From NCBI GenBank assembly GCA_051294905.1, contig CM119372.1, positions 29,142,001 through 29,206,000 on the forward strand: 64,000 bases of DNA. The letters are read 5' to 3'. Position numbers and translations under genes: made by a program. This document shows, one piece after another, positions 3,320 through 6,300 of the stretch; position 1 is the first letter of the stretch, and each line of letters starts with the position of its first letter. The stretch is from Botryllus schlosseri. Taxonomy: Eukaryota. Below the pieces are notes generated by a model, which was not told where the DNA came from, made no database searches, and saw nothing but the letters and a program-made list of their open reading frames with translations.

Positions 3320-6300
3320 CTAAATCTTTTGTATGACTGTGGGTGGTATAGGGCCTTCGCACAACACCACCTCTTGTACGTTTGATTGCAGCAGTACGAG
3401 TCCCTCATTCCTTAGATCTGCTGCTTTCATGCAAATTACCACATTTCGTTTTTTGCTTTTCTTCGTTATCGTTTTGCTCAAATGAATGAATCTTCTGTTC
3501 ATTCGTTCAATGCCTGCGGACATTATCTGTCTTGCATTGTTTTCGGTCGTCATGTGGTACAACACCTCGTTACCTTCATATTTACAGTACGGAGGGGGCA
3601 ACCCTTTTGTATGTCCATGGGCGGCCGCCAGACCATATTCCGAGGTTATTGCTCTGTCGCACCTTTGCATGACGCTCTGTATTTCGTCCATTTCCATTTG
3701 TTCCCCAGTTTTCTTTTGGAGGGCACCGTTAATATCTTCCCAGGGATGGAACCCGTCCACCGAGTTGTCACAAAGTTCATGTCGACAATGATACATCAGT
3801 GTCTGCTGTATTTTTTCCGGTCGGGGTCTTTCCTGTCGGTACGAAACGCTCTTTTTCTTGGGAATTGTCGCCCAAACATGTGGATCATCTTCTCCCGCAG
3901 CCATTTCCATCCAATAAGATCGAGACAATCCATCTGACGTAAATACCTGCATCGTACTTAAATGAATTACCTCTTTTATTTGGAATCCTGCGAGATGATT
4001 GAGCCACCTTTGAATTAGGGGTTTTGGGCTGGGATTTTTTGCTTTGTCCGTCATTCTTTTGAGTAGCCCAAATACCCCAGTATTATCAGTGATTATTGTA
4101 AAGGATAGGGCTCTCAACATTGACTGCCATTTTTCCACCGAATCCTTTAAGGCTTTCAATTCCTTTGTACATGGATCATAAGCTTTTGCCGTTGGAGTCG
4201 CCCATTTCTGACTGTAGTAAGCAATTGGGTAGACTTTTTCGAAAGGCGGCTTGCACCCCTTTTCCGTATAAAAAATGATTGATCCAAACCCAATATCTGA
4301 AGCGTCCGTTTCCACAAAAATGGGAAGATTTGGATCCAGATGGTACAGAACCTTAGCATCATCGAGGGCTGCTTGTGCCGTTTTGAAATCCTGCAGTAAT
4401 TCGTTGGTCCATAGCACAGGCGTCACTCGTCCTTGTGTCGCAGGAACCTTACCTGTCAGCGCATCGAATTTGGCCAGCTTCAAACTTAACTCAGGAATAT
4501 GTTCCGAGATATAGCGAAGGGCACCAATCCACCCCCGCAGCTCGTACACATTATGGGGTGGTGAGAGTTCTCGTAAAGCCCTTATTCTTTCGGGCTGAAC
4601 CTCAATCTCTTTCCCCGTCAAGGTTGCCCCCAAAAGGTTCACCCTTCGTTTCCCAATGAAACACTTATTTATGCTAACCGTTAGCTTCATCTTGGCAAGT
4701 TGTTCAAATACCATACGTAGCAGTAGCAAATGGTCCTCTACCGTTTTTGTGCTGAGAAAAATGTCGTCTATGTACGCCTCCATAGGCGTCGCATTCTCCT
4801 CATCCGGCCGGCCATTTTGCTTCATGTATTTACGATAATTTTCCGTTATTGGTTTCACCACGCATTCCTGCATATTCGCGCTCCAAAGAGCCACAGCAGT
4901 TTTAAGCCCCATCGGCATTTCACGCCATCTTACATGCATCCCTTTGATGGCTATACCCACATATTGTTTAGATCTTTCCGTTACATCCATGTGGAAATAG
5001 GCCTTCTTCAAATCAAGGAGAGAAAGCACTTCTCTGCCTTGGGCGAGCTGCTTTACGTCTGGTACAAGAGGTGGAGGTACTTCTATTGATTTTATGGCCG
5101 CATTAAGGGGTTGGAGATTCTGTACTACTCTCCAGGCTTGCTTCCATCCGTCCTCCTGTTTTTGTCTCTCATTCATTTTCTGAGGGACCACAAAGATAGC
5201 CAACTTCCATTCAGCAAAACCTCGTTCAATGACGCCCAAGTCCAGGAAGTTATCTACCGCTTCTTTCAATGCCTTTGCCTGGCCCTCCCCCTTCAGATTA
5301 TAAGGCCCAGACACAAATGGTTTCGTCGAGGGATCTTTAAGCTCGATGTCGCATTTGTATTTCATGGTTTGTAGAGCGCCAAGGTGGTCCCGTAGGTCCT
5401 CGAGTTCGGACGCGAACGGTGCGTAGATGGCTTTCCAGACATCATCAGCGATAATGGTATTTTCCGGAGTCGTCAGATCAGGAGGTTTGTATGGGAGTTT
5501 GGCCAGCGCTACCGATTGTGCACAGAGATTTTCGAGCTCCGTCTTGACACGTGGGTGAGTGTCTTTCTGTAAAACATACGTAGTGACTGGCCCAGTCATA
5601 GGCTGGTTTGAGATTCGTGATGACCGGGTTGTCGGTGTTGGTGGAGAGAGGGTGAGGTCCTTCGATGTAGGCCTCTGATCTCGGCGCGTGCCCGCACCTA
5701 CCGCCACGCCGACGGACTCCTTTTCCGCCGGGGACCCTTTTTCTGGGGAGACGTGCATCCTAAAATCCCCAGACTCCTTGTCGGACATATCCGGACGTGT
5801 ATCCGGCTGACCGGCAATTGCTGCTTCATTTGAACCTTTTGGGAAAGTACTCATTACTATGGTTGTCGTCATGCAACTATGGGCCGAATCATTAAGGTTA
5901 TTCGGACAAGTGCATCCACGAAAGCATTTAGGACCAGTTTTCTCGTGCAGGTCTTTATTCTCGCCAGCGGACATTCCACTCTGGATATCAGCTGTAGTAG
6001 TCGCCATGCATCTATGGGCCGGATTTTTATCGTCATCCGGACAAGTGCATCCGCGAGAGTGTTCGGGACCAGTTTTCTCGTGCAGGTCCATCTTTACGCC
6101 AGCGGGGATTCCACGCTCGACGTCTTCATTAACGGTGTCAGCAGGCATTCCTGTCTCGACACCTATAGTTTCCCTTGGGTTATGTGTGACGTTAGTTGCT
6201 AATATCAACTCGTCGCTCGTACCAGTGGTTATTTCCATCTCGGTACTCGCGCCAGCGGCAATTTTCCGCTCCACAATACTTTGTTTTGCAGCATCCATCA

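Follow-up and report, generated by a model that had tools for sequence, protein, structure and literature searches.

A Tpt1/KptA-like domain ends the Pol protein of a 35-kb unit with Merlin-type termini in Botryllus schlosseri

We describe here a mobile element of Botryllus schlosseri whose Pol protein ends in a domain related to the RNA 2'-phosphotransferases of the Tpt1/KptA family. The element lies on the minus strand of a 64,000-nucleotide stretch of contig CM119372.1 (assembly GCA_051294905.1, positions 29,142,001 to 29,206,000); the whole stretch is called the window, and positions are those of the window unless stated otherwise. The pol gene (3323..6928, minus strand; open reading frame, ORF, at 6928..3320) codes for 1202 aa and overlaps a 948-aa gag ORF (6868..9714, minus strand). 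The overlap holds an A_AAA_AAC slippery heptamer (6883..6889, minus strand), read directly in the letters, and pol is in the -1 frame relative to gag. Gag, which is present in all lineages compared, has a CX2CX4HX4C zinc knuckle that scores 20.5 bits as Pfam zf-CCHC (cut-off 20.8). In Pol, Pfam places a reverse transcriptase (RT; RVT_1, residues 596-770, 4619-5143), an RNase H (RT_RNaseH_2/RT_RNaseH, residues 840-982, 3983-4411) and, after a gap of only about 55 aa, PTS_2-RNA (residues 1039-1192, 3353-3814). The protease region (about 6419-6751) has no Pfam match; a retropepsin-type D-T-G motif, LADTGS...GIGG...IIG, is seen there by eye near residue 84. Neither PF00665, PF17921 nor any other integrase family was found in Pol (Pfam, E<=1), and Pfam gave no AP-endonuclease domain in the Pol of the window. 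The linker between protease and RT is a fast-evolving region with a tandem 135-nt duplication (5857-6120, 79% identical), whose unit encodes a Cys/His-rich motif, '...HEKTGP..RGCTCP...H.CM.TT'.

The last 164 residues of Pol (1039-1202, window 3323-3814, minus strand) were compared with known families at the levels of sequence and fold. PTS_2-RNA (PF01885) matched the whole Pol with an E value of 2.1e-10 (41.4 bits for a cut-off of 26, profile positions 5-177 of 177) and the C-terminal fragment alone with 6.8e-12 (46.2 bits). All ten phmmer matches among PDB sequences at E<=10 were RNA 2'-phosphotransferases (best 7kw8, 1e-6), and a profile built from 16 element-type domains gave eleven matches, every one a Tpt1 (best 7.2e-18). 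An AlphaFold2 model of the domain, computed from 12 element-type sequences aligned with 10 canonical ones, reached a predicted local distance difference test score (pLDDT) of 86.1 and a predicted template-modelling score (pTM) of 0.75, with disorder confined to 20 linker residues. When this model was compared with the PDB by Foldseek, the 21 matches at E<=0.001 were all Tpt1, KptA or TRPT1 (best E about 1e-11), and the template-modelling (TM) scores between the model and liganded archaeal and bacterial Tpt1 structures were 0.70-0.81. Since Pfam, phmmer and Foldseek all return Tpt1, the homology is as firm as sequence and fold prediction allow, and by these predictions the Pol C-terminus is a genuine two-lobe Tpt1/KptA domain, composed of a winged-helix RNA lobe and an ADP-ribosyltransferase-type NAD+ lobe. 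A preliminary description of this DNA had proposed a Tpt1/KptA-like domain at 3323..3814; the Pfam score of 41.4 bits against 26 and the uniform phmmer (10/10) and Foldseek (21/21) results bear it out, as do the profile and structure matches of the last ~165 aa (46.2 bits; TM up to 0.81).

The catalytic residues were mapped by counting on HMMER alignments to RslTpt1, PhoTpt1 and TkoTpt1 and by comparison with the published numbering (PMC6097658, PMC6333775, PMC12678800, PMC10622864). The tetrad Arg-His-Arg-Arg corresponds to R1049, H1050, R1092 and R1145, which are kept in 15, 16, 16 and 16 of the 16 element-type sequences, respectively. H1125 and T1127, the His and Thr of the HGT motif that bind the adenosine 2'-OH of NAD+ (PMC6333775), and H1149, the His of VHLS, are kept in 16/16. 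The third Arg of the tetrad, R1092, lies in 'CDRA', is invariant in the clade and is the Arg of an upstream K-x-R motif: in the HMMER alignments this motif is 'SKKRF' in Rsl (K62-K63-R64) and 'EKGRY' in Pho (K60-G61-R62), and the K63A chain of Tko differs from the wild type precisely at 'KGRY'. The contact lists in the available parts of PMC10622864 and PMC12678800 agree with this placement. RslTpt1 R64A is a selective step-2-arrest enzyme (PMC6097658), and an argument for end capping by a 'natural step-2-arrest mutant' was dropped; it had placed the third Arg on the Arg of IRAxQGHS, and residue counting put it at K-x-R. The preliminary description had read the letters correctly, in that the RH pair is kept (R1049, 15/16; H1050, 16/16), the Arg of IRAxQGH is replaced and HGT reads HMT, but its suggestion that activity may be altered because that Arg is replaced fails, as the third tetrad Arg lies in the invariant K-x-R position. 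Because the full tetrad and the NAD-contacting His and Thr are kept, we predict that the domain is an active NAD+-dependent enzyme; whether it would remove a phosphate or leave a stable ADP-ribose adduct is not readable from the sequence. The Tyr/Gln preceding G-H-S is mostly His in the clade. Residues 1047-1063 form a clade-specific Cys/His cluster, H-C-R-H-E-x-C...G-x-H-P-W, around the catalytic Arg-His pair, with H, C and H nearly invariant, and this cluster may be a metal site that has no counterpart in canonical Tpt1.

The domain is widespread in its own genome. A tblastn search of the 495-Mb assembly gave 135 matches at E<=0.001, with identities from 100% to about 30%, and 52 of them (a count transcribed by hand from the match list) sit in open frames of at least 1000 aa. 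Six diverged lineages, with domain identities of 61, 58, 57, 48, 36 and 38%, each have gag and then a 1067-1244-aa pol that ends in Tpt1. In three diverged copies scanned, PTS_2-RNA scored 35.1, 31.1 and 23.9 bits, the last of these (L021) below the cut-off of 26. Among four close copies, Tpt1 had pairwise ratios of nonsynonymous to synonymous substitution (dN/dS) of 0.19-0.28; those of RT were 0.02-0.04, those of RNase H 0.02-0.09, those of the protease region 0.09-0.33 and those of the repetitive Pol linker 0.56-0.88, the RT constraint being measured between copies at dS of 0.19-0.32. As judged from these alignments, our results show that the Tpt1 domain is under purifying selection and is a constant Pol part in a diversified gag-pol clade. 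Fused forms looked for through words of the Tpt1 region gave none among 79 candidates.

Outside the Botryllus schlosseri genome the fusion is rare. A search with the RT-RNase H-Tpt1 region returned 17 proteins, of which P0003 alone (45% identity over 774 residues) has PF01885, and 15 of the other 16 carry PF00665 and/or PF17921; in its RT the Pol comes nearest to gypsy-type proteins, with 20-27% identity. Among 1.84 billion representatives the domain had 35 matches at E<=0.001, about 14 of them element-type and mostly fragments; P0024, a clade fragment, is annotated in the tunicate Styela clava. A related-locus search by alignment pattern gave 102 pattern matches in metagenome contigs and 11 in viral contigs, and none was confirmed in either set. 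The Pol-Tpt1 architecture recurs in P0003, P0023, P0027 and P0054, all from other sources, so that other RT-RNase H-Tpt1 proteins exist both in these and in the 52 long frames of the genome; absence from related elements, which the preliminary description had named as evidence against its proposal, was thus not what we found. P0054 (1122 aa, on a 361-kb contig of another source) has protease-RT-RNase H-Tpt1 followed by a complete Exo_endo_phos AP-endonuclease domain (67.5 bits), and combines a gypsy-type RT with a LINE-type endonuclease. Since P0054 has an endonuclease after Tpt1, and Tpt1 is constant while the integration enzyme varies, Tpt1 is not a substitute for an integration enzyme. The proposal that Tpt1 occupies the integrase position of Pol thus stands as to domain order, RT-RNase H-Tpt1 without an integrase, and has to be modified as to a simple stand-in for integrase, given the P0054 endonuclease and the separate DDE transposase described below.

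The gag-pol pair forms the 3' module of a larger mobile unit of 35,217 bp (3049..38265, minus strand), whose ends are homology boundaries shared among copies. It was delimited by genome searches with the 30 kb upstream of gag: homology between copies extends upstream of gag, beyond a nested repeat at 10294-11653, and its limits are sharp, as all nine 5' copies start at 38265-38273 and all eleven 3' copies end at 3037-3049. Both ends carry 24-nt terminal inverted repeats (TIRs), the 5' one (38242..38265, minus strand) beginning 5'-GG and the 3' one (3049..3072, minus strand) ending ...GTTCC-3'. The TIRs are imperfect: in 10/10 copies they begin with GG and 16-18 of their 24 positions are complementary. 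The GTTCC end is found 240-290 nt past the pol stop in three diverged lineages. The window copy is flanked by an 8-bp target-site duplication (TSD), AATTTTTT in element orientation, at 38266..38273 on the 5' side and as an identical 8-mer at 3041..3048 on the 3' side (both without strand). Identical 8-mers also flank seven of nine other paired copies (8/10 with that of the window), and none is present at the C7 and C11 pairs.

No long terminal repeats (LTRs) were found: neither gag-pol nor the 35-kb unit is flanked by direct repeats, and the first and last 600 nt of the unit share one 10-mer only. Two direct repeats at 369-1595 and 38542-40050 (81-87% identical) were rejected as LTRs, being outside the unit boundaries. 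No tRNA gene and no primer-binding tRNA match was found, and Rfam gave no match over window 1-42000. The nested insertion (10294..11653, without strand) is an unrelated, very high-copy repeat of 1.36 kb specific to the window copy; its ends share direct repeats of 59 and 43 nt (10328-10421, 11562-11664), and its DNA word depth is about 2e5 vs 1-3e3 for gag-pol, so that the family is about 100 times as abundant as the element. The sequence at 38273-44000 recurs with 99% identity about 38 kb past the end of the window (C2:29243937-29249688), and a local repeat may have been the landing site of the unit or have been duplicated together with it. Outside the element lie satellite-like tandem arrays at 47664-49416, 55699-57147 and 59378-59709, with units of about 80, 203 and 41 nt.

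The large ORFs of the unit are all co-oriented: there are 16 sense ATG-ORFs of at least 140 aa vs two antisense ones, both overlapping pol. The gene order is DDE_A, env1, env2, several family-less ORFs, a leucine-rich repeat (LRR) gene, DDE_B, IAP, E2, gag and pol, all given here on the minus strand. DDE_A (37035..38006, 323 aa) is an IS1595/ISXO2/Merlin-type DDE transposase (PF12762, 39.2 bits for a cut-off of 27) with an N-terminal CxxC..CxxC, and DDE_B (18870..19817; PF12762, 57.3 bits) is a second IS1595/Merlin-type paralogue about 40% identical to it. The triad D156/D219/E258 and the four Cys of the CxxC..CxxC finger are invariant in 13/13 DDE_A/B sequences. Env1 (34401..36899, 832 aa) is glycoprotein-like: it has a signal-like N-terminus, a hydrophobic peptide behind an RRKR site, long helices and, at the C-terminus, a transmembrane segment. 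This layout of RRKR with a hydrophobic stretch, predicted helices and a membrane anchor is that of class I viral fusion proteins, and the env1 features come nearest to class I fusion glycoproteins with a weak score of 0.91; its AlphaFold2 model (pLDDT 32) is unusable, phmmer against the PDB gave no meaningful match, and one homologue only was found among 5.8 billion proteins. Env2 (30908..34312, 1134 aa) is a paralogue of the N-terminal part of env1, with a Ser/Thr-rich tail and a transmembrane segment. The remaining genes with family matches code for an LRR protein (20426..21475; LRR_8, 250 bits), an IAP-like protein (15786..17537) with three BIR domains and a RING (BIR, 200 bits; zf-C3HC4_3, 37 bits) and a ubiquitin-conjugating E2 (13585..14040; UQ_con, 159 bits). 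Next to element copies the E2 occurs in no fewer than 26 places, with 90-100% identity; apart from these, C1:34.12-34.49 Mb of the genome (G000) holds more than 20 single-ORF E2 (UBC) copies that are 51-81% identical to it. Intron loss as a sign of gene capture was abandoned, because with many other single-ORF E2 copies in the genome the intronless state is not diagnostic. A 189-aa ORF at 21561-22130 resembles the Bcl-2 family below threshold (E 0.025, 15.6 bits vs 31.4) and, if this hint is real, would be a second anti-apoptosis gene beside IAP.

Pol and the transposase travel together. A genome search with the DDE protein gave 124 matches. Of the 52 long Pol-Tpt1 frames, 48 lie within 80 kb of such a match on the same strand, for a chance expectation of about 0.016 per frame; the four unlinked frames include one on a contig end only 4 kb deep and one beside a DDE fragment. 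Identity to the window copy falls in step for the two proteins, from 91 to 39% in DDE_A and from 94 to 36% in Tpt1. In the lineage of L021/L022 (C1:24290815-24305814) and L044 the order is o168, DDE_B, gag, pol, DDE_A, env1, env2, a circular permutation of the window order in which the transposase gene is directly 3' of pol; the termini of this permuted lineage were not found within the 19 kb examined on C1. The permutation hints at a circular or concatemeric replicative form. From the genes and termini present, the integration enzyme is most likely the separately encoded Merlin-type DDE transposase of this TIR-bounded unit, and not a retroviral integrase.

What is the role of a Tpt1 domain in such a Pol? 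We propose, with a confidence slightly above even, that it is an active NAD+-dependent enzyme that would act in cis, in the reverse-transcription complex, on a nucleic-acid phosphomonoester, and that the element would use its own DDE transposase to insert the DNA copy. The most likely job of the domain, at chances a little short of even, would be the removal of internal or terminal 2'-phosphates from RNA. When metal-independent RNases cut RNA and the breaks are then healed or ligated, 2'-phosphates would be left behind; the Tpt1 domain would clear these in cis from the RNA template or primer, so that a genomic RNA of about 35 kb, or its primer, would stay usable for the RT, and the DDE transposase would then act on the inverted termini to insert the DNA copy. 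At about 35 kb, such a template would be particularly prone to 2'-phosphate damage. In the available part of PMC6182162, removal of the 2'-PO4 is done by every Tpt1 surveyed and 5'-phosphate capping by a subset only. KptA domains were noted in a tunicate nidovirus and an echinoderm picorna-like virus among 21,191 viral proteomes, with the proposal that they clean up 2'-phosphate or cyclic-phosphate ends left by metal-independent RNases (PMC9503650, as far as available). Our Foldseek search of BFVD found Tpt1 folds in Melipona quadrifasciata virus 1a, Botrylloides leachii nidovirus 1ab and A0A1L3KHQ4. We favour an RNA substrate and the canonical reaction because all Tpt1 enzymes surveyed remove 2'-PO4 and the only other polyprotein-embedded Tpt1 folds sit in RNA-virus replicases.

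Several observations weigh against this proposal, some of them in the domain itself. The Lys two residues before the third tetrad Arg is C, S, N, G or E in 16/16 sequences and never Lys; in TkoTpt1, K63A stops the reaction at the ADP-ribosylated intermediate (PMC12678800). The 'IRA' Arg is absent in 16/16 clade members, and no role was described for it in the available literature on Tpt1 residues. The Gly of HGT is replaced in 16/16 by Met, Ile, Val, Leu, Ala, Phe or Trp; of the equivalent Gly of CthTpt1, the main-chain carbonyl only is described as contributing (PMC6333775). The loop before the Arg133/137 equivalent is 5-9 residues shorter than the canonical one. No RNA ligase, 2H or macro partner was found among the element ORFs (Pfam, E<=1). 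As regards an RNA stage, TIRs with TSDs are alone the signature of DNA transposition; the unit has both and is without terminal redundancy, and RNA depth over gag-pol (3703-9316) was zero in two raw-read runs, of which 3-6% each was sampled. Strong RNA-read depth within the examined stretch was confined to the nested repeat at 10294-11653. In view of the zero depth over gag-pol, passage of the whole unit through RNA is hypothetical; gene co-orientation, very strong RT constraint and Pol-DDE co-divergence favour it.

The main competing explanation is the end capping put forward in the preliminary description: cDNA, nicked target DNA or RNase H products, wherever these end in a 5'-phosphate, would be ADP-ribosylated by the domain, which would stop there, shielding the ends from exonucleases and ligation until the transposase or an endonuclease acts. 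RNase H, which lies directly upstream in Pol, generates 5'-phosphate ends, and others could come from the endonuclease or transposase step. A subset of Tpt1 enzymes caps 5'-P RNA and DNA with ADP-ribose in one step, but DNA is not capped by human or Runella Tpt1 (both PMC6182162, available part). The 16 sequences all lack the Lys without which TkoTpt1 halts at the adduct, so that a capping outcome is possible, yet in the Runella and yeast enzymes the equivalent Lys is dispensable (PMC10622864, PMC6333775); and the best Foldseek match is TkoKptA K63A bound to 5'-p-ADPR-DNA, a ranking which among near-identical folds is uninformative on the substrate. The closest viral analogues sit in RNA-only replicases. 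We consider end capping possible, rather unlikely and not the favoured reading. Neither reaction would take place if the domain merely bound RNA by its winged-helix lobe, or were a structural spacer. Several canonical second-shell residues are changed in all members and dN/dS is higher for Tpt1 than for RT and RNase H, as a pseudoenzyme might have it, but lineages only 31-37% identical share the tetrad and the His and Thr that contact NAD, and an inactive module is not expected to hold exactly these residues; we rate this explanation the least probable of all.

Two further explanations were weighed. The 35-kb unit could be a giant Merlin DNA transposon that moves as DNA, with gag-pol(Tpt1)-env as captured retrovirus-like cargo without a role in transposition. 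GG-initiated TIRs, 8-bp TSDs and intact DDE triads do define a Merlin-type cut-and-paste element, and LTRs, a primer-binding tRNA match, a terminal direct repeat and RNA coverage in the sampled reads are all missing. An obligatory role of Pol is nevertheless what fits the parallel divergence of Tpt1 (94 to 36%) and DDE_A (91 to 39%), the linkage of 48/52 Pol frames to DDE against 0.016 per frame by chance, the RT dN/dS of 0.02-0.04 at dS 0.19-0.32 between copies, the co-orientation of all large ORFs and the circular permutation of gene order between lineages, and a passenger gag-pol appears improbable to us. Less probable again is a counter-defence enzyme that would modify or repair host RNAs (e.g. 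RNase-cut tRNAs) or interfere with host NAD+/ADP-ribose signalling: the IAP, E2 and LRR genes resemble host-manipulation cargo, and the available text of PMC9503650 treats viral KptA chiefly as an enzyme of tRNA repair or conflict, but Tpt1 is covalently fused to RT-RNase H in every member, P0054 included, which points to action inside the replication complex.

The repertoire of domains in retroelement Pol proteins is small and well known. Our literature searches, which covered papers without their supplementary files, found no report of a Tpt1/KptA domain fused to a retroelement RT, in agreement with the preliminary description, which knew of none. In its available text the viral KptA survey PMC9503650 has no RT or retroelement case, and 'reverse transcriptase' occurs in it 0 times. 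Literature searches for Merlin or IS1595 combined with RT, gag or giant elements gave nothing relevant; a recent paper on envelope-carrying retrotransposons has none of the terms sought, and no Merlin-based or RT+DDE giant element stands among the headings of a 2019 review of giant transposons (PMC6431247). The combination of RT and Merlin may be a new class. We suggest, as a tentative picture that is more doubtful than the enzymatic proposal, an undescribed class of virus-like elements: a retrovirus-type gag/pol/env replicon whose RNA genome, at about 35 kb, would greatly exceed the reverse-transcribing genomes known so far. A Merlin-type DDE transposase working on inverted termini would insert its DNA, in place of a retroviral integrase working on LTRs, and the KptA domain of Pol would keep the RNA template or its ends chemically clean. 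If active, the domain would add an NAD+-dependent RNA 2'-phosphotransferase or ADP-ribosyltransferase to reverse-transcribing replication as a new enzymatic step, and it connects this Pol to the rare KptA domains of giant RNA-virus replicases. With neither integrase nor LTRs, but with Merlin-type termini and transposases, a gag-pol-env element makes the boundary between retroelements and DNA transposons less sharp; it is a testable case of integrase replacement, and the small, easily expressed domain makes the chemistry directly testable.

How does this element compare with known systems? Cellular, archaeal and bacterial Tpt1/KptA/TRPT1 are stand-alone enzymes of about 180 aa. The Pol domain shares with them the predicted two-lobe fold, the tetrad Arg-His-Arg-Arg, the HGT-type His and Thr and the VHLS His, and differs in its fusion to the C-terminus of protease-RT-RNase H, in lacking the Lys before the third Arg and the 'IRA' Arg, and in its substituted HGT Gly, shorter loop and own Cys/His cluster. 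The KptA domains of RNA viruses (Botrylloides leachii nidovirus, Beihai picorna-like virus 117) resemble it as Tpt1 folds inside replicase polyproteins of viruses from marine invertebrate deuterostomes, but theirs are RNA-dependent RNA polymerase replicases and ours is a reverse transcriptase Pol. With the Ty3/gypsy (Metaviridae) LTR retrotransposons and retroviruses the element shares a CCHC gag, a -1 slippery heptamer, the D-T-G protease motif, RVT_1 and RT_RNaseH, and env-like genes, and unlike them it has Tpt1 and neither integrase nor LTRs. The AP-endonuclease-RT fusion of LINE-like non-LTR retroelements is not shared by the Pol of the window, whereas P0054 has an endonuclease after Tpt1. 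The Merlin superfamily is defined by DDE_Tnp_IS1595, TIRs of 24-462 bp with terminal 5'-GG and TSDs of 8-9 bp (PMC8101967, available part; the Pfam assignment is given also in PMC5751038), and the termini, TSDs and transposases of our unit are those of this definition: DDE_Tnp_IS1595 with a Zn finger, 24-bp GG-TIRs and an 8-bp TSD. Unlike Merlin/IS1595 transposons, the unit is 35 kb long and has 16 or more co-oriented genes, with gag, pol and env-like ones among them, as well as two transposase paralogues and imperfect TIRs. Teratorn, a piggyBac transposon fused with a herpesvirus (PMC6431247, available part), likewise joins a cut-and-paste-type transposase module to virus-like genes over tens of kb; there the transposase is of another superfamily and the partner a DNA virus, whereas here the partner is retrovirus-like.

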